In this document: positions 45,647-58,680 of the stretch, piece by piece
How the letters are laid out: each line of letters begins with the position of its first letter
Position numbering within the stretch: position 1 is the stretch's first letter
The notes under the pieces: model-generated
Told to the model about the DNA's origin: nothing
Seen by the model: the letters and a program-made list of their open reading frames with translations, nothing else
Databases searched by the model: none
NCBI GenBank assembly: GCA_021823345.1
Contig: JAKAOF010000007.1
Coordinates: forward strand, 1 to 58,799
Length of the DNA stretch: 58,799 nt
Direction: 5' to 3'
Origin: Thermoplasmata archaeon
GTDB taxonomy: Archaea > Thermoplasmatota > Thermoplasmata > Lutacidiplasmatales > UBA184
Position numbers and translations under genes: made by a program

Positions 45647-45753
45647 CTCAGGTGTTCCAGGGTGCGGGCGCCTATAGCCATTGGCTCCCGCTCGGCCCGG
45701 CCAGTGGTGCGCCGCAACGGATAACTATCCCCCGGTACCTTTCGTGCGCCATC

Positions 45754-48642
45754 GTGCACACCCCCACTGCGGCTCCCGTTCCTGGCGAGGTCCCGTTCGT
45801 AGGCCGTCGCAAGGAGATCGCCGCGCTCCGCGAGCACCTCCTCCACGCCCGGGATGGCCAAGGGGGCGTGGTCGTGGTCTCCGGTCCGGCAGGGATCGGC
45901 AAGACCTCGCTCCTCCGGTGGCTGGAAACGGAGGCCGAGCGCCAGAGCTTCTCCGTGCGATGGGGATACTGCCTGCCATTGTCGGCGGGCCCCTTCTTCC
46001 CCTTTCTCCAGCTCTTCCCGCAGGCCACGACGCTCCGGGAGAAATCGACGCCCGACCGTCGTCGCCGTTCGGGTCGATCGACCCGTGTAGCTCGCCCAAC
46101 TCGGTCGCCTCCGGGAGGGATCCCGGGGCTCCTTCAGTTCCTGGACGCGATGGAGACGCAGTCCGCCGCGCATCCCCTGGTGTTGCTCCTCGATGACTTC
46201 CACTGGGCCGATCCGGAGTCCATCCAGGCGCTCCGGCTCCTGGGACGGAATGCCCGCCGGCGAAGCGTCCTGTTCGCCGTGGCCGTCCGGGAGACGGAAG
46301 TGAGCAGTCCCTCGCTCCAGGACCTCCTCCGGGACCTTCGAAGGGAGGGGGTCGCGCGGGACCTGCCGCTCACCGGTTTCCGTGAGCAGGAGGCGCAGGA
46401 CCTGCTGGAGAGCGTGATCCGGGCTCCCATGGACACCCACCGGGTACGGGGTGCCTTGCGCGCCCTGCTCGCCCGCACGGGGGGAAATCCCTACTTCTTG
46501 CTCGAGACGGCCCGCCAGCTGCAGGAAATGGGTCAATTGCGGCGGGAGGAGGGCCGCGCGGTGCTCGAGGTGCGCGAACCCCGCGGGACGGAACGTCCCC
46601 TGGATGTGCCCTCGAACGTTGGGGCGCTCCTCGATGGGACCGTCGCGCTCCTCGCCCCCGAGGAGCGGGAAGTGCTCGAGGGGGCGTCCCTCATGGGACC
46701 GGAGTTCGAGCCGGCCGCATTGCCCGCGGTCCTGAGGAAACGCAGCCGGGAGGTGCTCTCCACGCTCCACCGGCTCACCTCGGCCCGGAAGCTGGTGGAG
46801 CCGGTCGATGGGACCCCCGGGCGGTACCGATTCTCCCACATTCTGCTCCAGGAGCGGATCCGTTCTTCGATACCGGCCGATCGCAAGGGCGTCTGGATCC
46901 TAGGTCTACTGCATTGGTGGGAGTCCGAACGTCCCGCGGCCGTCGGTCAGATCTTCGCTCTGTGCCGCGATGCGGACATCTATCCGACGGGATCCGCGGC
47001 TTGCGTCAAGGCCATCGACTCCGCCCTCGAGTCCCACGGGCACGAGCGGGCCGCAGGGCTTGCCAATGAGATGCTCGAGTGGATGGTCGAACGGCACGAG
47101 TCCAATGCGGTGACGGGCGCCTGGGGGCTCCGCACCTTGGACCGGATGCGCCAGGACGGGGCGGCGGGCCGCTGGACGGAGCCGCTGTGCCGCCGTCTCT
47201 TGGACCTGGGCCTTCCCGTTCCCCTTCGTTGGCAAGTGTCCATCCGATTGGCGGGGATCATCGCGGACCGGGTTCCCGAGGCCCGCCGTACCCTCGACCA
47301 GGTCCAGTCGGAGATGAAGCGGTCCCCGCTCTCGAGCGAACCGGCGCTGCAGGGAACGTTCGCGCTCATGGACTCGGTCGTGCTCTACAACGAGGGGAAG
47401 ACCGCCGCCTCCGAGGCCGCGGCCCAGCGGGCCCTGGATATCCTTCCGCCGGAAGAGAAGTTCTACCGTGGACTGGCCCTTCACCGGCTGGGCTGGGTCG
47501 ATGCGGAACAGAACCGCTGGGCGGACGCCCGGGACCGCATCGAAGAGGGGTTGTCCCTCGCCCGATCGGAGCGCTACTGGGGCCTCATCCCCTACTTCCT
47601 CCTGATGCGGGGGCAGGTGGCCACCATTCAGGGCGAACTCCTGCGCGCCGAACAGATCTTCGAAGAGACCGCGGGGGTCTGCCGCGATCTGGGGCGCATG
47701 AACTGGCTCGCGACCACGCTCGCGGACCTCTCCCTCGTGCGGGCGGATCGCGGGGACCTCGCCGGAGCGGAGTCGGCTTCGAAGGAGGCCCTGCGGGTCT
47801 CGGAGACCTTTTCGATCCCGGGGGAGATCGGACCGAGCCTCCTCCAGTGGTCCCGGGTCAAGCTTCGGCAGGGGTTCCCGGCCGAGTCCATGGAGATACT
47901 GCGGCGCGCCCAGAAGGCGTACGCCGAGCATGGTCGTTCGACCGAGGTCCTTGAGATGCGGATGCACCGGGCCGACATCCGCTTTCACCTCGGCGATCCC
48001 AAAGGCGCGATCGAGGAGCTGCGGGACATCGAGGAGGGGAAGCTCAAGGAGGAGCAGGTGGCCCACCTGCATCTCCTCCGGGCCCAGTTCCTGATGGCTC
48101 GAGGGGATGGGCCCCGGGCCCGATCGGCCGCCGAGCGCGCGCGCTCCGAAGCCACCTCCCGGGGCCTTCGGTACAGTGCGGCCCAGGCGAACGCCACCCT
48201 CGCGGAATGGGAGCGTCGATACGGGACGCCCGAACGCGCAGCCGCGATGCAACGGCGCGCCGACCTCCAGTTCCGGGAGTGCGGCGTGCTGCGGACCTTC
48301 CGGTTCGATGGGAAGATACCGGGGGTTCCCTCCGTCACGACCTCTCCGACCCCACCGGCGCTCGCCCTCCGCTCTCCCTTGGCCTACCGCCTGCTGCGGT
48401 ACCTCTCCGTCCACGGCGCGATCGAGGGGATGATCGGACCGCGGGACCTCGCCCCGTTCGCCCTCACCCAGCAGGGGATCGCCCAAGGCCTCGGGATCCC
48501 CCGGGACCGCTTCAGCATGGTGCTCAAGCGGCTGGTGGACCGCGGGCTTGTCACCGCGCGCCAACACTACGTCCAGGCGGCGACACGCCGGTTGAAAGTG
48601 TACGTGCTCACCGAGGCGGGCGCCCGTCTCGTCTCCGCATAA
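45754..48642 (+). CDS. STAND-class ATPase with TPR-like repeats and C-terminal winged helix-turn-helix
   Basis: FVGR, Walker A GPAGIGKT, Walker B LLLDDFHWAD, GGNPYF, helical repeats, C-terminal LTQQGIAQGLGI..LKRLVDRGLV..KVYVLTEAG; start GTG 45754 (45652 possible). Confidence 0.85.
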   Translation: MHTPTAAPVPGEVPFVGRRKEIAALREHLLHARDGQGGVVVVSGPAGIGKTSLLRWLETEAERQSFSVRWGYCLPLSAGPFFPFLQLFPQATTLREKSTPDRRRRSGRSTRVARPTRSPPGGIPGLLQFLDAMETQSAAHPLVLLLDDFHWADPESIQALRLLGRNARRRSVLFAVAVRETEVSSPSLQDLLRDLRREGVARDLPLTGFREQEAQDLLESVIRAPMDTHRVRGALRALLARTGGNPYFLLETARQLQEMGQLRREEGRAVLEVREPRGTERPLDVPSNVGALLDGTVALLAPEEREVLEGASLMGPEFEPAALPAVLRKRSREVLSTLHRLTSARKLVEPVDGTPGRYRFSHILLQERIRSSIPADRKGVWILGLLHWWESERPAAVGQIFALCRDADIYPTGSAACVKAIDSALESHGHERAAGLANEMLEWMVERHESNAVTGAWGLRTLDRMRQDGAAGRWTEPLCRRLLDLGLPVPLRWQVSIRLAGIIADRVPEARRTLDQVQSEMKRSPLSSEPALQGTFALMDSVVLYNEGKTAASEAAAQRALDILPPEEKFYRGLALHRLGWVDAEQNRWADARDRIEEGLSLARSERYWGLIPYFLLMRGQVATIQGELLRAEQIFEETAGVCRDLGRMNWLATTLADLSLVRADRGDLAGAESASKEALRVSETFSIPGEIGPSLLQWSRVKLRQGFPAESMEILRRAQKAYAEHGRSTEVLEMRMHRADIRFHLGDPKGAIEELRDIEEGKLKEEQVAHLHLLRAQFLMARGDGPRARSAAERARSEATSRGLRYSAAQANATLAEWERRYGTPERAAAMQRRADLQFRECGVLRTFRFDGKIPGVPSVTTSPTPPALALRSPLAYRLLRYLSVHGAIEGMIGPRDLAPFALTQQGIAQGLGIPRDRFSMVLKRLVDRGLVTARQHYVQAATRRLKVYVLTEAGARLVSA

Positions 48643-48712: not shown

Positions 48713-51700
48713 ATGGCGTCCAGGGGGAGAGAATCTTATCGCGCTGGACTTGGTTTTGTAGGAACGGGGAACGAGCACGGACCGGAGGAGCCCGCGGGAT
48801 CTCCTCTGGATGTTCCGGTGATGGACGAGGGGCCGACCCATGAAGCCCCGTCCACGCGGTCCGTCCGTCGATCGCACCGCCCCTCAACGGGGATTATCGT
48901 ACTAGCGATCACCATGGTCGTCACCATGGGGGCCATCGTGGCCCTGCCCGCCGTATCGGCCACTTCCCTGCCCGGTTCCCCCGCGGTTCCCTCTAGCGGC
49001 ACCTGCAACCCCTCTTCTCCTTCGACCTTGTTCAGCTGCCTGGAAAGTCGCGTATCCTCTCAGCAAGGCGGCTCGTTCCTCGCCTCGTCCCAGTTCCTGT
49101 CGATCATCATCGGTGGCGCAGAGAAATTGGGAACGCAGTACGGATTCCCCTGGGAATATGTGTACTCGCAGATGGCGGGTGCGGAGTGCGGTGCATGCGC
49201 GTACGCGCAGTGGCCGGGATACTCTGCTCCGGGCAACGTCCACAGCGCCCAGAACTGCTTCAACTGGTGGAGCCTCACTCCGGGGGGAGAGTCCTCCCAG
49301 TACCAACACCTATCCTACACGTATGCGAACGTCCCGAGCGAAGCGGTCGTCACCAATGTGGGATGGCGCTGCTACAACATGTGGGACGGGGGCGGTCCCG
49401 GGAATGGGGGCGGGGACTACGACATGTACGACTTCAACGTGAACCCGGGTCCGCCGGGAGACACTAGCGATTCGGTCTCTCAGGCCATCACCTCGCTCAC
49501 GGACGCCACCACGGGGCCGAACGGGATCACCAGTTACTATTCCTCGAACGTCGGGGTGTGCTACAACGGCTTCTGCGGCTCCGAGATCAAGAACACCTGC
49601 AGCTTCTCCACTTGGGCGGGTGGAACCTACGCCATCGGCCGTCCCTGGGGGGGGGAGGCGAGCTATGCCAGCTCGATCCAGGGTGAGGTCAACTATCTGT
49701 TCGGATCGGTCGCCAATGTCCAGGCCGCGGCGACCGGGGGCAATGGCGCCCCGTGCCTCACGCCGGATGCGGTCACGAGCGGCGGAGGCAGCACCTCACT
49801 GACCGTAAGCTATGGCGCGCAGATCGGAAGCAACCAGATTCACTGCGGCGCGAGCTTCGTGAGCGGGACCACGGTCACGTTCACCGCCTCGGTCAGTGGC
49901 GGCAGCGGTAGTTACTCCTACTCCTGGAACTTCGGGGACGGGTCCTCCGTCGGGCACGGGACCCCCGTCAAGCACACCTATTCCAACGTGGGCACCGTGA
50001 ACCCCCAGCTCAGCGTGACCGACTCGAACAAAGATACGGGGTCATCGGGTTCTGGTTGCACCTTCACCGTCACCTCGGGGTCCACGGGTACGGTGAACGG
50101 CATCGACGTCTCGAGCTATCAATACACGCCGAACTGGCAGACGGTCGCATCCTCCGGCATCCAGTTCGCCTGGGCCAAGGCGACCCAGGGCAACTACTAC
50201 CAGGATGGCGTTTTCAACTACGATATGACCAACGGCAAGGCGGCCGGGGTCATCATGGGGGCGTACGACTTCGCCGACCCCGACAATGTGGCGGCGACGA
50301 CCGAGGCCGCGTACTTCGAGAGCTTCGCGGGAGGATACTTCAAGGCGGGGTACCTCGTCCCCGCGCTGGACATCGAGACCGGCTGTTCCGGGGCCGGGAA
50401 CGGGAACCTCAACGCCGCCCAGATCTCCTCCTGGGTCGACACGTGGTCCTCCAACGTGGCCTCCTACATCCAGACCCATGACGGCTACACGGTGAAGCCG
50501 ATCATCTACACGTACACGAGCTATGCCTCCTCGTGCCTCACCTCGGCGGTCACCTCCTACCCGCTCTGGATCGCCTGGCCCTATTCCTCGTCCCCGTCGA
50601 CCACTCCCTGGTCGGTCTGGGATGTGTGGCAGTACGGGACGACCTCGGTCCCCGGGGTTTCGACGGCGACGGATGTCGACCGGTTCCATGGGGACCTCTC
50701 CCAGCTCAAGTCGACGTTGGTCATCGGCGGCACCCCCTCGGGAGGGACGGGCCCTACCTGCCCCAACCTCGCCGCCGTCACCAACCCGAACGTTGACGGG
50801 CATTCCACGCCCTCCGTGACCCAGTCGAGCGTCGGCACCGGGTACTGGCTGGTCGGCGCGGATGGCGGGGTCTTCACCTTCGGCAATGCCGGATTCTATG
50901 GTTCGGCCGCCAGCAAGAAGCTCGGTGGATGCATCGTCGGGATGGCCGCGACCCCGGACGGGAAGGGGTACTGGCTGGTAGGTTCCGATGGGGGCGTCTT
51001 CGCCTACGGCGATGCCGGATTCTACGGCTCGATGGCGGGTAAGTCCCTCGCAAAGCCCGTCGTGGGAATGGCCGCGACCCCGGACGGGAAGGGCTACTGG
51101 CTCGTTGCGGCCGATGGGGGCATATTCAATTTCGGGGACGCGACCTTCTATGGCTCCCTGCCGGGAGAGCATCTTACGGTGAGCGACATCGTCGGGATGG
51201 CCGCGCTCCCGGACGGGAAGGGCTACTGGCTGGTGGGCGCCGACGGAGGCGTCTTCAGTTTGGGCAGCGCCGCGTTCTACGGCTCGATGGGCGGGAAGTC
51301 CCTCGCCGCCCCGGTGGTCGGGATGGCCACGCCCGACGGGAAGGGCTACTGGCTCGTTGCGGCCGATGGCGGGATCTTCAGCTTCGGCAGCGCCGCGTTC
51401 TACGGCTCGATGGGCGGCAAGGCCCTCGCCAAACCGGTCTCCGGAATGGTGTCCACCCCGGACGGGAAGGGCTACTGGCTCGTGGCCCAGGACGGGGGAG
51501 TGTTCAGCTTCGGGGATGCCCCCTTCTTCGGGTCGATGGCCGGCAAGTCCCTCGCCGCCGCGATGGTGGGCATCGCCGCCGTCCCCTCCGCGGCGAACGC
51601 CGTTCCCGTCGTGTTCACCGCCACCTCACAGACCTCCGGGTGCGGCTCGGGCTGCAACATCTGGTCGGCCGCCCACCTGTCGCTCTCCGTGAGCGGCCCT

Positions 51701-52612
51701 TCGGGGGCCGTGGGAACCTACACCGCGAACACGGCCGCCCTCCTCCTTGAGCCGGGTACCCAGTACACCGTCCAAGTGTCCGTGGGCAACTCGGCCTATT
51801 CGGTGGGCAGCTGGTCCGACAACAACTTCGCCACCCTCATCGTGAGCGTGGGCGGAACGAACCATCAGTACTCTTCCAAGTGCGGCACGCCCACCACCAC
51901 GCCCGGTACCTCCGCCAAGAGCGCGCTCCTCGACACCGGGACGGCCTGGAGCTCGAGCTGCCAGGCCTCCCCACCCCTCGGCGAGCATGTGAACGTCAAC
52001 ATCGTGTCGAGCGGAGGAGGGTCCTCCCAGTGCTCGCAGGCGACCGCGGTGACCCTCGGCAAGGTCGTTACGGGGACCTTGTCGGCCGGCGGCTGCGTCC
52101 TGTTCTCGGTGGCCATCACGCAAACGGACTGGAACAACTGGGGATACCTGGACGCCTACGAGGTGGAGGGTTCCGGTGCATTCCAGATCGCCGCGGGGAT
52201 GTCCCCGCCGACGGTCACCGCGGCGAATGCGCGGGCCGTCGCGAAGGGCCCCGATGCGGCGGTGTCCGTGCCCCTCACCTCCCCCCTGGCGAACCAGTGG
52301 ATGGGATGGGGGACCTATGAGTACCTCGTGACCGCCCCCGGGACGGGAGGGAGCTACTGCTTCGTGACCTACCTTTCCAACCTCGAGGCGACTCCCTCGG
52401 CCTCGTGCGCCACGCACGTCCTGGCAGGAAGCCCCCTGCCATCCTCCCAGGACGCCGGGACGCGGACGTTATCCGTGCCCGCCCCTAGCGGTGTCTCGGT
52501 AGCAATTCTCCCGGGTAACGCATGGTTGAGCTCGATAGTCCTCCTCTCGTTCGTCGGGATCGCCACCGGCCTGTTCTTCCGAGGACGCCGCACCGAGCGA
52601 AACCTGGCATGA
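48713..52612 (+). CDS. Surface-anchored multidomain peptidoglycan hydrolase: GH73-like domain, PKD, GH25 muramidase, six GYWLV repeats, Cys-rich domains, C-terminal TM
   Basis: GH25 motifs GIDVSSYQ, KATQG, GAYDF, LDIE, WQY, DVD (~50090-50715); PKD YSWNFGDG..HTY; N-terminal signal and C-terminal TM plus RGRR; alternative start 48821. Confidence 0.88.
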   Translation: MASRGRESYRAGLGFVGTGNEHGPEEPAGSPLDVPVMDEGPTHEAPSTRSVRRSHRPSTGIIVLAITMVVTMGAIVALPAVSATSLPGSPAVPSSGTCNPSSPSTLFSCLESRVSSQQGGSFLASSQFLSIIIGGAEKLGTQYGFPWEYVYSQMAGAECGACAYAQWPGYSAPGNVHSAQNCFNWWSLTPGGESSQYQHLSYTYANVPSEAVVTNVGWRCYNMWDGGGPGNGGGDYDMYDFNVNPGPPGDTSDSVSQAITSLTDATTGPNGITSYYSSNVGVCYNGFCGSEIKNTCSFSTWAGGTYAIGRPWGGEASYASSIQGEVNYLFGSVANVQAAATGGNGAPCLTPDAVTSGGGSTSLTVSYGAQIGSNQIHCGASFVSGTTVTFTASVSGGSGSYSYSWNFGDGSSVGHGTPVKHTYSNVGTVNPQLSVTDSNKDTGSSGSGCTFTVTSGSTGTVNGIDVSSYQYTPNWQTVASSGIQFAWAKATQGNYYQDGVFNYDMTNGKAAGVIMGAYDFADPDNVAATTEAAYFESFAGGYFKAGYLVPALDIETGCSGAGNGNLNAAQISSWVDTWSSNVASYIQTHDGYTVKPIIYTYTSYASSCLTSAVTSYPLWIAWPYSSSPSTTPWSVWDVWQYGTTSVPGVSTATDVDRFHGDLSQLKSTLVIGGTPSGGTGPTCPNLAAVTNPNVDGHSTPSVTQSSVGTGYWLVGADGGVFTFGNAGFYGSAASKKLGGCIVGMAATPDGKGYWLVGSDGGVFAYGDAGFYGSMAGKSLAKPVVGMAATPDGKGYWLVAADGGIFNFGDATFYGSLPGEHLTVSDIVGMAALPDGKGYWLVGADGGVFSLGSAAFYGSMGGKSLAAPVVGMATPDGKGYWLVAADGGIFSFGSAAFYGSMGGKALAKPVSGMVSTPDGKGYWLVAQDGGVFSFGDAPFFGSMAGKSLAAAMVGIAAVPSAANAVPVVFTATSQTSGCGSGCNIWSAAHLSLSVSGPSGAVGTYTANTAALLLEPGTQYTVQVSVGNSAYSVGSWSDNNFATLIVSVGGTNHQYSSKCGTPTTTPGTSAKSALLDTGTAWSSSCQASPPLGEHVNVNIVSSGGGSSQCSQATAVTLGKVVTGTLSAGGCVLFSVAITQTDWNNWGYLDAYEVEGSGAFQIAAGMSPPTVTAANARAVAKGPDAAVSVPLTSPLANQWMGWGTYEYLVTAPGTGGSYCFVTYLSNLEATPSASCATHVLAGSPLPSSQDAGTRTLSVPAPSGVSVAILPGNAWLSSIVLLSFVGIATGLFFRGRRTERNLA
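50833..51580 (+). repeat. Six intragenic ~126-bp repeats encoding PDGKGYWLVxxDGGVFxFGxAxFYGS
   Basis: Repeated (CC)GGACGGGAAGGGCTACTGGCT visible at DNA level; ~42-aa protein period. Confidence 0.9.
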
Positions 52613-55600
52613 GCGGGATCCCTCTCCGGGGGGGCCTCCTCCTCCACGGGTCCATCCTCATCGCCGCGATGGTGTTGGTGATCGTCCTCCTGCCGGTGGC
52701 CACCGGACCGGGCCCATCGGCGCCGCCGTCCGTCGCGCTATCGGTCCCCTCTCGCCACAGCGCTTCCGGGTCCCCGTCGGCGGGACCCCTCGTCGCGCTG
52801 GCGACGAACTACAGCGGGACCCCCTCCGTGAAGGACCTCTCCTCGCTGCTTCCCTCGGTTCCCGGGGGATCGTGGTCCCGGGTCTCGCGCATCCTGCCCC
52901 TGGGCGGGGGAAGCTTCGAGGTCCTCGGCGCCGACAGCGCTACCATGATCCCGAAGCTGGGTATCCTCACGACCGCGACCACCCCTGCGACCTTCACCGA
53001 CACGACCTCCGGTTTCACCGCGCAGCTCAACAACGTCTCCGCGGCATCGCTCACGGGCAACACCTACGATGGCGGGCAGCTCACCGGTGCCCCCACGACG
53101 ATGTACCTGTGGAATGCTCAGTTCGGACAGTTCAGCGTCTTTCCCGAGATATGGACGGTGAACACCGCCACGAAGGCCGTCACCTCCATGACCATTCCCC
53201 CGTCCTTCACTGCGCTTGATGGGGCGACCTCCGATGGGGCCTTCCTCCTCTTCGTGGGGCAGAACTTCTCCGGGGCCACCCCTGAAAACCTCTTCAGCGT
53301 CTACAATGCTTCCGCAGGGTACGTCAACGTCACCGGGGACATTCCCGCCTCCTTCGGGGCCGCGCAGTTCGCCGTGGGGACCAGTTCCGGGTTCCTGTTG
53401 ACCTCGAACCAGAGCAGCAACACCCTCGGGCTCCTCTCCTACTCGACCGGAGTCTGGAAGTTCACCAACCTCACCGCTTCGCTCCCTCCCACGTCCACCT
53501 TCACTTCGCCGGCCGATCCCCTGGCCACGAACGGCCCCGAGATCCTCCTGGGGTCCTTCCCCCACGGACTGCCCACGGGCACGCCGGACGCCTGGGGGGT
53601 CCTCAACCTGACCACGTCGACCTTCGCGAACGACACGGCGCCGGTCGTCGCCGCGCTGGGTACGCCGACGGCTGCCACGCGAAATCCCGTGAACGGCGTC
53701 AACTTCACCCTGGCCTCGGCCTCCGAGGTCGCCAACCTTGATGGGGCGACCGGCACGGTGTCGAAGCTCGCGGCGAGCGCCCCGTGGAACTCTTCCGAGA
53801 CCCCCACGAGCCTCGAGTGGACCGCATCACGCACCTTGCTCGCCGGGGGCCAATCGACGGGAGGGTGGGCCTTCCTCGACTCTTGGGCCGGGTCCGGTGG
53901 TGTGACCCCTCTGACCCTCCCCTCGGGCCTCGTGGACCCTTCCACCATGGCGTATGGGAACGGGGAGCTCTGGCTGGGCGGCAGCAACGGAAGCGCCGGC
54001 TCCGGCCTCCTCATCAACCTCACGAGTTCCGCCATCGTGCCGCTCGGCAGCGCCTTCCCGGTCCACATGAGCACCCTCTCGGCGTCGACCATGCTGGGCT
54101 CGACGCTCTACCTCTCGGACGGATCGACCATCCTTTCGTACAACACCGCGACCTCGGGACCCTTCTCCGTGCTTCCCACCGTGCCCGGCAGCGGGTACAC
54201 TGACACCCTCGCCGTCGTGAACGGGACCCTCTGGGCCGGGGGCACCCTCTTCACCGGCGCGGCGGGACTCTTCCAGTATTCCGCCTCCGGAGGGACCTGG
54301 ACCAATCTCTCCGGGAACCTCGGGAGCATGGGCTTCGGGCTCGGGGACATCGTTCCCGGGAACTCCACGTCCGCGCTCCTCGGCGGGATCTCCGGGAATG
54401 GGACCGGGGACATCTGGTACTTTAGCGCCTCCTCGGCGAAGCCCTTCCAGAACGTCACGAGCGACATGGGCGCCACGCCTCCGACCCTCGCAGGATCGGA
54501 GCAGGCCGGGTGGAACGGGACGGCCTTCTGGCTCCTCGATGGGTCCCAGATCCTTTCGTGGGCTCCCTCGCAAACCTCTGCGGCGTTCGTCTTCTTCACC
54601 TCGCCGGTCCCGCTCCTCTCGCTCAACTCCCTCGCCGTCGCCCCGCAGGGATTCGTCCTGGGCGGTTACGGGAACGAATCCGTGAGCGCACCCAATGTGC
54701 CGGTCGCGCTCGTCGGAGGAGGGAACACCGGGCGGTTGGACGACCTCACGTCCCTTCTCGGGAAGAACTGGACCCTTCCACCCCTGTCCTACATCGCCGG
54801 CAATGAGATGGCGATCACCTCCGAGAACCTCTCCGGGGAAGCCACCCTTGCCGCACTTCCCCCGCTCCTCCAAGGCACGCTCTACGCGAACGCATCGGAA
54901 GCGGACGCGCCGAGCACCATCCACTTCTCCCTCCAGGTGAGCGGTGGGGTCCCCTCCTACGGGACGGTCCAGTGGGTCATCTCGGGCAAGCCCAGCCTTT
55001 CGGGGCCCAGCGCCAACTTCGTGTTCAACACCTCGGGGATCTACCAGGTGAACGCCTCGGTTTCCGACTCCGGTGGAGCGTCGTTGCTCGTGCAGGGGAT
55101 CGTCACCGTCAATCCTCCGCTCTCGCTCCAGCTCCAAGCCACCCCCACCTCCGGGCTCGCTCCGCTCACCGTGAGCGTGAAGTGGAACCTCACCGGGGGC
55201 GCCGGGGTCGGTCTGGGGGTCGACCTCTCCTTTGGGGACACGGCCGTGAACAACGGACTCGGGGCGAACGGCACCGTGTCCCACACGTACGCAACGGCCG
55301 GGGTCTACACGTTGACCGCGACCGGGACCGACGGCGTGTTGACCCTCACGCAGACCCAGACGATCACCGTCTCCTCGTCAACGCCACCGCTGCCCACGCT
55401 CACGGGGGCCGCCATCTCGCCCGCCACGATCCAGGTCAAGACCAGCGCCACGCAGGCGTTCTCCGGAACCCCCCAGTGCTCCAGTTCCTGCCCGGTCGTG
55501 AACTACTCCTGGGGAATGAGCGGCCACTTCGGGACGCTCAACTCGACACGGGGCAGCTCGGTCGCGTTCACCGCCGGCACGGTGAGCGGCAATTTCACGC

Positions 55601-55929
55601 TCTATCTCAACGTGTCCCTCAATGGGACGGTCAAGGCCGCGACCGCCCACGTGCAGGTGGTCGCCTCCACGACCACCCCTCCCCCGGGAGGGAGCTCGTC
55701 GAACTCTGGCATTCCGCTCACGGACGTCGTGGTCCTGGTCGTCGTGTTCCTGGTGGTGATCGTGGGGCTCCTCGTCCTCATGATGCGCCGGCGCCAGCAG
55801 GCGAGCCCAGCGGCCCCCGCACCCGCCGCCTCGCCCCCGCCCGCGATGGCCGCAGCGCCCGGGTTCCCGGCGGGACCCGCCGCCCCCCCCTCCCCGCCGG
55901 CACCCAAGAAGAAGCGCGGGTGGGTCTGA
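52609..55929 (+). CDS. Large surface glycoprotein with beta-propeller-like repeats, PKD domains and C-terminal TM anchor
   Basis: ATG 52609 overlaps the upstream TGA (ATGA); signal peptide, recurring xNL[TS]xxL motifs, PTSGLAPLTV..FGD..HTY PKD, TM plus RRRQQ and Pro-rich tail. Confidence 0.8.
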   Translation: MSGIPLRGGLLLHGSILIAAMVLVIVLLPVATGPGPSAPPSVALSVPSRHSASGSPSAGPLVALATNYSGTPSVKDLSSLLPSVPGGSWSRVSRILPLGGGSFEVLGADSATMIPKLGILTTATTPATFTDTTSGFTAQLNNVSAASLTGNTYDGGQLTGAPTTMYLWNAQFGQFSVFPEIWTVNTATKAVTSMTIPPSFTALDGATSDGAFLLFVGQNFSGATPENLFSVYNASAGYVNVTGDIPASFGAAQFAVGTSSGFLLTSNQSSNTLGLLSYSTGVWKFTNLTASLPPTSTFTSPADPLATNGPEILLGSFPHGLPTGTPDAWGVLNLTTSTFANDTAPVVAALGTPTAATRNPVNGVNFTLASASEVANLDGATGTVSKLAASAPWNSSETPTSLEWTASRTLLAGGQSTGGWAFLDSWAGSGGVTPLTLPSGLVDPSTMAYGNGELWLGGSNGSAGSGLLINLTSSAIVPLGSAFPVHMSTLSASTMLGSTLYLSDGSTILSYNTATSGPFSVLPTVPGSGYTDTLAVVNGTLWAGGTLFTGAAGLFQYSASGGTWTNLSGNLGSMGFGLGDIVPGNSTSALLGGISGNGTGDIWYFSASSAKPFQNVTSDMGATPPTLAGSEQAGWNGTAFWLLDGSQILSWAPSQTSAAFVFFTSPVPLLSLNSLAVAPQGFVLGGYGNESVSAPNVPVALVGGGNTGRLDDLTSLLGKNWTLPPLSYIAGNEMAITSENLSGEATLAALPPLLQGTLYANASEADAPSTIHFSLQVSGGVPSYGTVQWVISGKPSLSGPSANFVFNTSGIYQVNASVSDSGGASLLVQGIVTVNPPLSLQLQATPTSGLAPLTVSVKWNLTGGAGVGLGVDLSFGDTAVNNGLGANGTVSHTYATAGVYTLTATGTDGVLTLTQTQTITVSSSTPPLPTLTGAAISPATIQVKTSATQAFSGTPQCSSSCPVVNYSWGMSGHFGTLNSTRGSSVAFTAGTVSGNFTLYLNVSLNGTVKAATAHVQVVASTTTPPPGGSSSNSGIPLTDVVVLVVVFLVVIVGLLVLMMRRRQQASPAAPAPAASPPPAMAAAPGFPAGPAAPPSPPAPKKKRGWV

Positions 55930-55944
55930 GATACCTCCCCGCGA

Positions 55945-57234
55945 TCAGGACGGAGCTTCCGGTAACGCAGGAAGCGGTGTAGGGTCGAGTCGCCACAGCT
56001 TGCGACCCGCGAGGGAAAACACCCCGGAAAGGAGGAGCCCGGCTCCCGCGAACTCGATCGTGGGGGAGATCCCATACTTCCCGATCAGCACGCCCCCGAC
56101 GATCTGGGACACGGGCAACACCCCCCAGCTCAGGAGGCCATCGAGCGCGAAGTAGCGGCCTTGCACACCGGTGGGCACCATCGTCTGGGCGGCCGTGAGC
56201 CAGGTGTTCCCGGCAAAGCTCGAGAACACCACGTAGCTGAACACCAGGGGGAAGGCGAGCGTCGGGGCGCTCACCAGGGAAAGGCCGAAGAGCCCGAGCC
56301 CCGACCCGATACCGTACCCCAGCACCCAGACCTTCCCGACGTGTCGGACCGCCGCCGTTCTCCCGACCAGGAGGACCCCGATGGCGCTCCCCGCGGTCAT
56401 CGTCGCCAGGAACAGTCCGTAGGTGAGGGAGGTCCCGTGGAGGTTCTCCACCACGTAGACGACCACGAAGGTGGTGAACACGGTGCTGAAGAAGTTCATG
56501 AACAGGGCGGATACCGAAAGTTGCCAGAGGCCCGGAGCCTGGTGGATGAGCCACCCGAACCCTTCGGAAAGTTCCCGCAACATCCGGGGCGGAGCGGCCC
56601 GGGGTTTCCGGGAGGCCTGGTGCGCGAGGCGGAGGGCCCGGTAGACGCTGAGGAGGAAGAGGGAGGAGACCACGAAGGTCAGGGAGTTGTAGAGTATCCC
56701 GAGGACGGCCCCGACCGTGATCACGAGGATCCCCCCGATCGAGTTCGAGACGAGGCTCACCAGCGAGCGGGAAGCCAGGTTGAGCCCGTTGGCGTCCGCA
56801 AGGTCCTCGGGCGGGAGGATCGCCGGGAAGAGGGTCTGCTCGGCCGGCTGGAAGAGGACCGAGGCGGCCGAGACGACGAACATCGCGACCAACACGAACG
56901 ACAGTTGAAAGCCCTCCCAAAGGAACGCCACCGTGAGCCCTCCCAGCGTGACCGCCCGGATGAGGTCCGCCGCCACCATGAGGCGCACCCGGTCGTACCG
57001 GTCGATCCAGACCCCCGAGGGAAGCGTGAAGGCGATGGTCGCGGCCAGCTCCACGATGCCGACATAGGCGACATCCATCGCGGACTTCGTGGTGGCGAAC
57101 ACGATCCAGATGATCGCCACGCTCGCGATGGTCCTCCCGCTCTGGGAGGTCAGTCCGGCAAGGTAGACCGCCCGGAAATTCGGGACCTTGAGCACTCGGG
57201 CAAATCGATGGGTGGTTCCTTCCGCTGGACGCAT
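55945..57234 (-). CDS. MFS transporter (DHA3/macrolide-efflux-like)
   Basis: About 12 TM segments; GVWIDRYDRVRLMVAADLIRA motif A, LADANGL, QTMVPTGVQGRYF. Confidence 0.88.
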   Translation of the reverse strand: MRPAEGTTHRFARVLKVPNFRAVYLAGLTSQSGRTIASVAIIWIVFATTKSAMDVAYVGIVELAATIAFTLPSGVWIDRYDRVRLMVAADLIRAVTLGGLTVAFLWEGFQLSFVLVAMFVVSAASVLFQPAEQTLFPAILPPEDLADANGLNLASRSLVSLVSNSIGGILVITVGAVLGILYNSLTFVVSSLFLLSVYRALRLAHQASRKPRAAPPRMLRELSEGFGWLIHQAPGLWQLSVSALFMNFFSTVFTTFVVVYVVENLHGTSLTYGLFLATMTAGSAIGVLLVGRTAAVRHVGKVWVLGYGIGSGLGLFGLSLVSAPTLAFPLVFSYVVFSSFAGNTWLTAAQTMVPTGVQGRYFALDGLLSWGVLPVSQIVGGVLIGKYGISPTIEFAGAGLLLSGVFSLAGRKLWRLDPTPLPALPEAPS

Positions 57235-57363: not shown

Positions 57364-58680
57364 ATGCCTCATATGGCGAACGTAGGGCAACCTCGGCGCT
57401 GGAAGACAATTGGAACGATCGCGGTGACGGGACTGTTGACGATGGGATTCCTTTCCCTAGTCCCGATCCTCCTGAACTCGACCGCGCCGGTGGCCGCTCC
57501 GGGGGTGACGTTCCTCCCGGACGCCGTGCCCTTCGTGCACGTGATCTCGTCCTCTTCGAGTCACCACAAGCCCGGCGGCGGCGGTGGCGGCGGCGGCGGA
57601 TCGACCTGCACCACGACCCTTCCGGCCGCGAACGGCGTGTCCTTCACACCGGCCGAGATCCGGCAGGCGTACGGCTACTCCTCGACCTACACTGGGGCGG
57701 GAGAGACCATCGCGATCATCGACGCCTACGGGAGCCCCACGATCACTTCCGACCTCGCCTGCTTCGACCAGACCTTCAGTCTGCCGGCGCCCAGCCTCAA
57801 CGTCGTCGCGCCGTTCGGCAAGGTCCGCTCGAACTCCGGTTGGGGCCTTGAGACCTCGCTCGATGTCGAGTGGGCCCACGCCATGGCGCCCGCCGCCAAC
57901 CTCCTGCTCATCGAAACCCCCTCGAGCTCGTTCACCTACCTCGTGAACGATGCCGTCCCCTACGCGGTCGCGCACGGGGCCAAGGTCTTCTCGATGAGCT
58001 GGGGTGCCGCGGAGAGTTCCTTGACCTGCTCCACGGAAGCCACCGAAGCAACGTACTTTGCGAACGCCGTTGCCGCGGGGGCGATCCCGGTGGGTGCCTC
58101 CGGAGACAGCGGGGCCAATGACGGCACTTCGTCCCCCACGGTCGATTACCCTGCGGCGGACGTCAACGTCGTGGGCGCCGGCGGGACCTCGCTTACCACA
58201 ACCAACACCGGAGCCTACAACGCCGAGACCGTCTGGAACGATGGCTCCAAGAGCGCGACGGGTGGCGGAGTGAGCGCATGCCTCGCAGAACCCTCCTACC
58301 AGAGTTCCCACAACATCCTGGTCACCACTTCCTCCGGCTCTTCCACCCCCACCGGGCGGGCCGTTCCCGACGTTTCCTACGATGCGAACCCCTCGACCGG
58401 GGTCTGGGTCTACGACACCTCGGGATACTCCGGCTGGGTGCAGGTGGGAGGCACCAGTGCCGCGGCGCCCCAGTGGGCCGCGATCTTCGCAGATGCCCTC
58501 TCTGCCGGGGCCGCCATCAACGGAGGTAACATCCACGCGGACCTTTACAACCTCCTGGGGACGGCGAGCCTGCACGATGTCACCCAAGGCGGCAACGGTT
58601 ACTACTACGCAAGCGCCGGATACGACGCCTGCACGGGAGTCGGTTCCCCCGTGGAGTCGAACCTGATCAGCGCGCTCTGA
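57364..58680 (+). CDS. Secreted S53 (sedolisin/kumamolisin) peptidase without a classical prodomain
   Basis: ETSLDVEW (Glu-Asp), SGDSG oxyanion, GGTS serine, DVT.G.NG..GYD..TGVGSP calcium site; N-terminal hydrophobic anchor. Confidence 0.92.
   Translation: MPHMANVGQPRRWKTIGTIAVTGLLTMGFLSLVPILLNSTAPVAAPGVTFLPDAVPFVHVISSSSSHHKPGGGGGGGGGSTCTTTLPAANGVSFTPAEIRQAYGYSSTYTGAGETIAIIDAYGSPTITSDLACFDQTFSLPAPSLNVVAPFGKVRSNSGWGLETSLDVEWAHAMAPAANLLLIETPSSSFTYLVNDAVPYAVAHGAKVFSMSWGAAESSLTCSTEATEATYFANAVAAGAIPVGASGDSGANDGTSSPTVDYPAADVNVVGAGGTSLTTTNTGAYNAETVWNDGSKSATGGGVSACLAEPSYQSSHNILVTTSSGSSTPTGRAVPDVSYDANPSTGVWVYDTSGYSGWVQVGGTSAAAPQWAAIFADALSAGAAINGGNIHADLYNLLGTASLHDVTQGGNGYYYASAGYDACTGVGSPVESNLISAL

Follow-up and report, generated by a model that had tools for sequence, protein, structure and literature searches.

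The window analysed here is the whole stretch of 58,799 nucleotides of contig JAKAOF010000007.1 (assembly GCA_021823345.1) from a Thermoplasmata archaeon. Within it, the open reading frame (ORF) at 48713-52612 encodes a protein of 1299 amino acids (aa) that carries a glycoside hydrolase family 25 (GH25) muramidase domain. Ahead of it lies an N-terminal domain that escapes the current family models. Predicted structures and profile comparisons point to this N-terminal domain being a very distant, cysteine-rich relative of the glycoside hydrolase family 73 (GH73) glucosaminidases. The features of the ORF are as follows.

48713-52612, + strand: whole ORF, 1299 aa, predicted surface-anchored multi-domain cell-wall hydrolase
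48884-48964, + strand: N-terminal hydrophobic segment, residues ~58-84, behind an RR-containing basic stretch (Kyte-Doolittle scan)
48995-49747, + strand: divergent GH73-like domain of predicted lysozyme fold, residues ~95-345 (models, profile comparison and conservation)
49184-49186, + strand: Glu158 codon (translation and family alignment)
49199-49462, + strand: ~90-residue insertion with conserved Cys, residues ~163-250 (predicted local distance difference test, pLDDT, <50 and invariant columns)
49850-50044, + strand: PKD domain, residues 380-444 (Pfam PF18911, 2.1e-9; PF00801, 9.3e-9)
50102-50644, + strand: GH25 muramidase domain, residues 464-644 (Pfam PF01183)
50840-51577, + strand: six tandem ~42-aa repeats starting GYWLV(G/A)xDGG(V/I)F, residues 710-955 (sequence scan)
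52520-52588, + strand: C-terminal hydrophobic helix, residues ~1270-1292, then RGRRTERNLA; putative membrane anchor (hydrophobicity scan)

A Pfam search of the whole protein matched only the PKD and GH25 domains and left residues 1-379 and 645-1299 blank. The GH25 domain scores 118.7 bits against PF01183 (cutoff 27 bits, E 4.6e-34; 123.9 bits and E 9.0e-36 in the genome search). GH25 is marked by a catalytic Asp near the N-terminus and a D-x-E motif, and the translation reads G-I-D465-V-S and D553-I-E555. In the blank region ahead of these domains, a first-pass annotation made from the sequence alone had placed a second, hidden lysozyme-fold domain resembling GH73. The region was correctly chosen; the start given, 49080, is one base off frame, which is trivial, and the domain is slightly wider, at residues ~95-345.

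The domain was excised for searches as residues 90-345 (P0002, window 48980-49747). Searched against Pfam, NCBIfam and all PDB chain sequences, P0002 finds nothing at E<=10. The nine family members, each run against Pfam, leave the domain equally blank, the family profile finds nothing at E<=10 among PDB sequences, and a PHROGs search of the domain family returned only noise at E 0.21-0.45. An exhaustive phmmer search of 1,835,955,588 representative proteins revealed 5 relatives at E<=0.001, to which word-indexed searches added one further relative, P0009. A scan of one genome per prokaryotic species yielded 3 loci, L003 and L005 from 'Candidatus Micrarchaeota' and L004 from a 'Thermoplasmata archaeon'. 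Nine family members were aligned, and these form two subfamilies with identities of 46-90% or 48-59% within a subfamily and 27-38% between them. The motifs G-x-S-F, Y-x-F-P-W, E-C-x-x-C-x-Y-x-x-x-P, S-x-x-N-C-x-N-x-W-S-x-T and F-N are invariant in all nine, as are one Tyr and one Pro further towards the C-terminus. The Glu codon at 49184-49186, put forward in the first pass as catalytic, encodes Glu158. This residue is invariant in 9 of 9 members, is the sole invariant acidic residue of the family, and aligns with the catalytic Glu of GH73.

Two AlphaFold2 models of the domain were obtained. Model 1, of the window domain (6-sequence alignment), has a mean pLDDT of 57 and a predicted template modelling score (pTM) of 0.60, with the core helices at pLDDT 70-87; the ~90 residues after the Glu (P0002 residues 71-164, pLDDT <50) are unmodelled. 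Model 2, of the P0009 domain, which is 31% identical to that of the window, was built from a 9-sequence alignment and has a pLDDT of 61 and a pTM of 0.64. In model 1, Glu158 is found at the C-terminal end of helix 58-71 (P0002 numbering), the second core helix.

Both models were compared by VIA-align with 48,161 representative PDB chains in an exhaustive structure search. An identical set of chains occupies ranks 1-6 for the two models: 7pj3 (LytB), 5dn5 (FlgJ), 4qdn (a Thermotoga glucosaminidase), 7qfu (AtlA), 8yxk (the glucosaminidase of the C. difficile endolysin Ecd09610) and 4kt3 (a type VI effector). The top six for model 1 have Z scores of 6.2-5.6 and root mean square deviations of 3.5-4.1 over 104-126 aligned residues, and those for model 2 have Z scores of 5.2-4.4. 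An AlphaFold model followed by a structure search was the check suggested with the first-pass annotation, and its outcome, with GH73 enzymes ranked first, bears out the proposal of a hidden lysozyme-fold domain. The rows that follow, to about rank 25, are mostly GH19 endolysins and chitinases, MltF, phage lysins and fungal muramidases. In a Foldseek search with model 1, GH73 entries take ranks 1-3 and 10 of 11 rows (E 1.9-3.0, not significant). When Foldseek's 11 chains were re-scored, 4 reached Z>=2, and all four are GH73 (3k3t, 6.7; 3vwo, 6.2; 2zyc, 5.9; 3fi7, 5.0). A viral structure library gives a tail lysin as its top row (E 0.098), followed by two rows labelled 'Muramidase (flagellum-specific)'. 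The models thus show a lysozyme-like fold for the domain as predicted, with GH73 as the nearest fold.

At the sequence level, the link to GH73 passes through a bridging group of proteins. The family profile was run over 301 genomes of the phylum to which the Micrarchaeota record belongs, and one extra ORF was found, P0012, at E 4.3e-6 per genome. P0012 (333 aa) scores 35.5 bits against PF01832, Glucosaminidase, for which the cutoff is 30.2 bits. Proteins resembling P0012 are present in 10 of the 301 genomes searched (L024 1054-2055 on the - strand, and L026-L034). Comparison of the family with the 10 P0012-like sequences by hhalign gives a probability of 83% (P 9e-6) and a score of 41.4 that 0 of 116 block shuffles reached, and the P0012 subfamily aligns with canonical GH73 at 96.9% (P 1.3e-10). 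The C-terminal halves alone of the family and the P0012 subfamily also align (P 0.0024), with the order along the sequence preserved. Here N-T-C-S-F-S-T-W...A-S-Y-A-S-S-I...Y-L-F-G is paired with N-T-G-N-F-T-K-W...S-A-Y-T-D-K-V...F-L-F-S, and HMMER recovers the same two stretches of family and P0012 in the same order. The C-terminal half of the family set directly against canonical GH73 gives no alignment (P 0.57), and PDB sequence searches of P0012 and P0005 gave no matches. These comparisons show homology to GH73 at the profile level, by way of the bridging Micrarchaeota subfamily, and descent of the domain from a common ancestor with GH73 is considered very probable. The domain is classed as GH73-like and is not counted among the GH73 members, since the PF01832 family model fails to match it.

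Two members of the P0012 subfamily have E-C-G at the catalytic Glu (M-E-C-G-K), as does the window family. P0012 itself displays hydrophobic stretches near both ends, as seen by eye. A circular permutation, in which G-G-S-F-L-x-x-P-Q-F ahead of helix 1 would stand for G-Y-A-T-D-P-x-Y, was considered and dropped; the secondary hhalign match has a P of 0.29.

Five peptides had been quoted in the first pass as following the order of GH73 motifs. All five are present in the ORF in that order.

49118-49192, + strand: AEKLGTQYGFPWEYVYSQMAGAECG, residues 136-160
49247-49267, + strand: AQNCFNW, residues 179-185
49469-49489, + strand: DSVSQAI, residues 253-259
49619-49633, + strand: GGTYA, residues 303-307
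49661-49699, + strand: SYASSIQGEVNYL, residues 317-329

The four equivalences to GH73 motifs drawn from these peptides fare unequally. That of the Glu helix is supported, and the N-x-F-G block is aligned with an ambiguous register, whereas the pairings of GGTYA with GYATD and of DSVSQAI with SxxESI are unconfirmed at the residue level. By hhalign, Glu158-Cys-Gly falls on E-[S/T/C]-G of the P0012 subfamily with a one-residue gap before the Glu. Y318, the Tyr of SYASSI, pairs with the second Tyr of (G)YATDPxY ('DPxY') only via the bridging subfamily (P 0.0024). A Tyr is found at the Y318 place in all 8 members that reach it (by eye, in the hhalign alignment), and the first Tyr of (G)YATDPxY has no fixed counterpart in the family.

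The window family resembles the GH73 enzymes of PF01832 that are its best structural matches (FlgJ, 5dn5 and 2zyc/3k3t; LytB, 7pj3; AtlA, 7qfu; Auto, 3fi7; Thermotoga TM0633, 4qdn; Ecd09610, 8yxk) in the order of its elements: helix 1, a G-x-P turn, helix 2 ending in Glu, an N-x-aromatic block and, towards the C-terminus, a helix whose Tyr is matched by way of the P0012 bridge. Unlike these enzymes, it has the ~90-residue insertion after the Glu, an extra residue between Pro and Glu, a C-x-x-C directly after the Glu and about eight conserved Cys. The YATDP motif is not retained, and the PF01832 hidden Markov model is silent. The nearest bona fide GH73 proteins are the small Micrarchaeota proteins, P0012 and 9 relatives, which belong to the same phylum as most carriers of the domain. 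They share with the window family the signatures S-[FY]-L-S-x-P-x-[FY], G-[VF]-P-W-x-[FY]-[IV]-[FY]-S, E-[STC]-G, N-T-x-x-F-x-x-W and Y-x-x-x-[IV]...L-F. The P0012 group differs in that its members are single-domain proteins of ~220-350 aa which pass or approach the Pfam model and have neither the long insertion nor the conserved Cys.

The extra cysteines noticed in the first pass are real: residues 1-378 contain 11 Cys, several of them invariant. All 9 members keep C159, C162 and C182, and in the 6-sequence alignment C220 and C296 are invariant as well. Since eight Cys are conserved (98, 109, 159, 162, 182, 220, 296 and 348), the pattern suggests up to four disulfides, which would fit an extracellular acid habitat. 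The insertion (residues ~163-250) lies behind the Glu helix and ahead of the core helix that comes next, and it contains the N-C-x-N-x-W-S-x-T block and the F-N dipeptide. An invariant C-x-x-C is found directly after Glu158 (E-C-x-x-C, 9 of 9; residues 159-162, 49187-49198). It could be a set of disulfide partners, a redox switch or a metal site, and we know of no GH73 counterpart for a C-x-x-C behind the catalytic Glu.

The reading preferred here, to which a probability of roughly 0.6 is given, is that residues ~95-345 form a catalytic lysozyme-fold domain, a very distant, Cys-rich and insertion-bearing relative of GH73, that acts on bacterial peptidoglycan beside the GH25 domain. We infer from the evidence above the catalytic activity, the bond specificity, the peptidoglycan substrate, the disulfides and the ecological role. 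Glu158, at the end of the second core helix, would act as the general acid. The N-terminal signal or anchor and the C-terminal transmembrane helix would hold the protein outside the cell. GH73 enzymes cut GlcNAc-beta-1,4-MurNAc and GH25 enzymes cut MurNAc-beta-1,4-GlcNAc; the GH73-like domain would be expected to cut the first bond and the GH25 domain the second, so that the two hydrolases together would reduce glycan strands to small fragments. The PKD domain and the six-repeat module next to the hydrolases might bind substrate. The target would most likely be bacterial peptidoglycan, either as food from dead cells or in order to harm bacteria. A wall-less archaeon may therefore carry a protein that cuts bacterial walls at both sugar bonds.

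Several observations weigh against this reading. At the sequence level, PF01832 gives no match at E<=10 to any of the 9 family members and, when the genome (93.6% complete) was searched in all six frames, none at E<=1. Against a GH73 reference alignment of 13 sequences (E. coli FlgJ and 12 phage lysin regions found with FlgJ), direct hhalign comparison of the 9-member family is weak, with a score of 24.8, a P of 0.0051 and a probability of 7%. That alignment runs from helix 1 across the G-x-P turn and helix 2 as far as the Glu, and it also takes in the N-x-aromatic block. Its score was unreached by 147 column shuffles (maximum 20.2) and 141 block shuffles (maximum 22.9), which places the likeness above chance. 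With the 6-sequence alignment against E. coli FlgJ alone, the hhalign probability is 0.1% (E 0.55). In the family the Glu comes 12 residues after the conserved Pro, against 11 in GH73, and GGTYA is missing from the four subfamily-B members. Among the 9 members there is no second invariant Asp or Glu. Many GH73 enzymes, though not all, have a second acidic residue on a beta-hairpin lobe; the model has strands at W-R-C-Y and M-Y-D-F, at pLDDT <50. At the structural level, the models are of medium quality, with the ~90 mid-domain residues unmodelled. With neither model did Foldseek against PDB reach E<=0.001, and for model 2 it places citrate symporters and other unrelated proteins in the top rows and 3vwo 22nd. 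Every structural Z is below 8, the tool's caution level, where a match may reflect only a shared arrangement. Because of this, the fold argument rests on repeated family-specific ranking and on no single score. Finally, the ORFs of L003 and L005 (full-length Micrarchaeota) and P0005 display no partner hydrolase that Pfam recognises.

An alternative is that the domain is an active lysozyme-fold enzyme with another chemistry or substrate, such as a GH23-like muramidase or lytic transglycosylase, a GH19-like chitinase, or an endo-beta-N-acetylglucosaminidase acting on archaeal surface glycans. We consider this rather unlikely, though some points speak for it. For model 1, GH19 endolysins and chitinases (Z 5.0-4.9) and MltF (Z 4.8) follow close behind GH73 (Z 6.2-5.6), where rows within 1 Z count as tied, and a protein-atlas feature search gave 'Lysozyme g' clusters in which 26% of members carry PF01464 SLT (12 of that set's 30 hits). 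Neither the large insertion nor E-C-x-x-C has a known GH73 counterpart. In addition, the carriers are for the most part giant surface proteins of Micrarchaeota, and two of these have no recognisable peptidoglycan-specific partner. Micrarchaeota live as symbionts on Thermoplasmata, and a substrate among archaeal surface glycans would suit organisms attached to other archaea. Yet the sole bridge found at the sequence level leads to GH73 through P0012, GH73 entries hold ranks 1-6 in two independent models, and the partners that can be recognised, GH25 and NlpC/P60, are peptidoglycan enzymes.

Less probable again is a non-catalytic descendant of GH73, which would bind glycan or play a structural part and so position the GH25 or NlpC/P60 enzyme. 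The lack of a second conserved carboxylate would be explained, as would the one-residue register shift before the Glu and the loose retention of the conserved aromatic of the GH73 C-terminal motif. Some module of the protein must also bind substrate, as it has no recognised wall-binding domain. Invariance of the Glu and its surrounding block, in a family where most pairs are only 27-64% identical, argues against a loss of catalysis. In the L003 and L005 ORFs, moreover, the domain is the only hydrolase-like module found, which is hard to square with a mere helper. A coincidental resemblance, in which an unrelated, lineage-specific Cys-rich new fold was drawn by the models as a helical bundle, is very improbable: the mean pLDDT of 57-61 from alignments of 6-9 sequences, the Z scores below 8, the Foldseek E-values short of significance and the silence of Pfam would permit it, but the same six GH73-type chains top the models of two sequences 31% identical, the N-terminal part (P 9e-6) and separately the C-terminal half (P 0.0024) align in the same order with no shuffle reaching the full-length score, and the bridging P0012 passes Pfam's own PF01832 threshold.

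The domain is rare. It is present in 2 of 401 genomes of the window's class, the source genome and one congener; it was not found in two other congeners searched. A full copy is present in 1 of 301 genomes of the phylum of the L003 genome. The family is thus restricted to a handful of Micrarchaeota and one Thermoplasmata genus, which is a new observation. The copies at L003 (1074-1811), L004 (6001-6741) and the window (48980-49747) were compared: the window domain is about 61-62% identical to that of L003, about 51-52% to that of L004/P0005 in its own genus, and 37% to that of L005. Because the window copy is closer to the Micrarchaeota L003 than to its own genus, the identities hint at transfer of the domain between the phyla. 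As both Micrarchaeota and a genus of Thermoplasmata carry it, the domain would serve as a concrete sign of gene flow between the lineages. In GC content, the window domain has 0.63, that of L003 0.58 (in a locus of 0.54) and that of L005 0.45.

A wider reading joins these elements, and it is offered tentatively, as a possibility that we hold to be doubtful. The family would be a new one at the CAZy level, made up of lysozyme-fold glycosidases that descend from GH73 and are stapled by disulfides. Only a few archaea of mine drainage would have it, and it would have passed between Micrarchaeota episymbionts and Thermoplasmata. The fusion to GH25 would make a membrane-tethered cutter of two bonds, for killing or eating bacteria on contact.

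The pairing of the domain with other enzymes varies between carriers. In the window protein it is paired with GH25. Of the 8 homologous proteins, P0003 is a fragment, and P0008 ends at its C-terminus in what reads as unrelated, possibly frameshifted sequence. In 3 of the 8 (P0006, P0007 and P0009, all Micrarchaeota) the domain is followed by NlpC/P60. This order mirrors that of bacterial autolysins, in which Glucosaminidase followed by NLPC_P60 (or CHAP) is a described two-catalytic-domain layout of autolysins and endolysins (PMC8051824). The window protein differs from these two-domain autolysins in that it has two glycosidases, the domain and GH25, rather than a glycosidase and a peptidase. 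No statement either way on GH73+GH25 fusions was found in a literature search of titles and abstracts.

The Micrarchaeota carriers (P0006, P0007, P0009, L003 60-5948 and L005 4855-11253) are giant proteins of 1357-2133 aa. They have in common a conserved N-terminal module of ~350 aa and, around the domain, a conserved C-terminal module; Pfam has no family for either. In P0005, residues ~313-560, behind the domain, contain the motifs D-C-A-H-F-V-S and G-D-H-I-E-I-I-V-G. By eye these recall papain-like wall amidases (NlpC/P60 or Amidase_6), a likeness that finds no support in Pfam or PDB sequence searches.

Archaeal peptidoglycan hydrolases as such have been described. According to one survey, they are found in about 5% of archaeal genomes, Thermoplasmatota included, with a patchy distribution; examples are the GH25 enzyme of Aciduliprofundum boonei, which is bactericidal, and the Halogranum proteins 'Woldo' (M23) and 'Danwoldo' (PF01832 and PG_binding_1) (PMC12352652). 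The first-pass view that the architecture is unusual for an archaeon therefore needs to be narrowed. The archaeal setting alone is not unusual, because such hydrolases are already in print, and the GH25 domain is likewise known from that survey (PMC12352652), whereas the domain family and its pairing with GH25 are new. The window protein resembles the hydrolases described there in coming from a murein-less archaeon, in being a secreted or surface enzyme, as predicted, in its patchy distribution and in having Thermoplasmatota among its carriers. The published enzymes were found by standard Pfam models and have known wall-binding domains (PMC12352652), whereas the window domain is invisible to Pfam and its protein lacks a catalogued wall-binding domain.

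We therefore regard as new a GH73-related family missed by current models, its large Cys-bearing insertion and its pairing with GH25. Literature searches on archaeal wall hydrolases, GH73+GH25 fusions and Micrarchaeota wall hydrolases, mainly of titles and abstracts, found no description of the domain family. Surveys of archaeal antibacterial weapons use Pfam models and known wall-binding domains (PMC12352652); they undercount because the window family is invisible to a survey of this design. If active, the domain would add an acid-environment, Cys-rich branch to the GH73 lineage, and the window would provide an archaeal protein that, tethered to the cell surface, combines two different glycan-strand hydrolases, which is rare.

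The type VI glycoside-hydrolase effector of Pseudomonas protegens, 4kt3, ranks first for model 2 (Z 5.2) and fifth for model 1 (Z 5.7). We take it to be a GH73-like glucosaminidase used as a weapon. That effector is injected and is paired with an immunity protein, whereas nothing of that kind was seen beside the hydrolase gene.

The remainder of the window protein bears on its location and on substrate binding. The same protein is found in the protein database as P0004, whose start corresponds to Met68 of the ORF. The N-terminal hydrophobic segment (residues ~58-84) is a candidate signal peptide or N-terminal anchor. With this segment and the C-terminal hydrophobic helix followed by RGRR, display of the protein on the outside of the cell is most likely. 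A C-terminal sorting signal of the PGF-CTERM type was considered and dropped; because no NCBIfam sorting-signal model matched, the C-terminal helix is termed a transmembrane anchor only.

The GYWLV repeats have no Pfam family in the search of the whole protein, and they are 48-58% identical to those of the congeneric P0005. They are probably beta-propeller-like and may form a six-bladed propeller that binds substrate. Pfam recognises no cell-wall-binding domain in the window protein. Between the repeats and the C-terminal anchor, residues ~960-1269 (51590-52519) comprise ~300 residues with 8 Cys, and Pfam recognises no family there.

The genes that flank the hydrolase are as follows.

45652-48642, + strand: MalT-like STAND regulator, 996 aa (AAA_16, TPR_MalT and a C-terminal MarR-type winged helix), directly upstream
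52522-55929, + strand: PKD surface protein, up to 1135 aa, with its own C-terminal membrane anchor, directly downstream
55945-57234, - strand: MFS transporter, downstream
57364-58680, + strand: subtilase, downstream

The MalT-like STAND protein is a possible regulator of the hydrolase gene. The listed frame of the downstream PKD gene overlaps the end of the hydrolase ORF, and its true start is probably later. A second GH25 protein is encoded in the same genome (contig C42, 122152-122712; L002). It has an N-terminal GH25 domain followed by many PKD/Ig-like repeats and is without the GH73-like domain. None of the 6 sequencing runs with matching DNA is listed as an RNA run. Near-identical DNA of the hydrolase gene is found in runs labelled mine drainage metagenome, with shares of 0.96 and 0.84, from one study.

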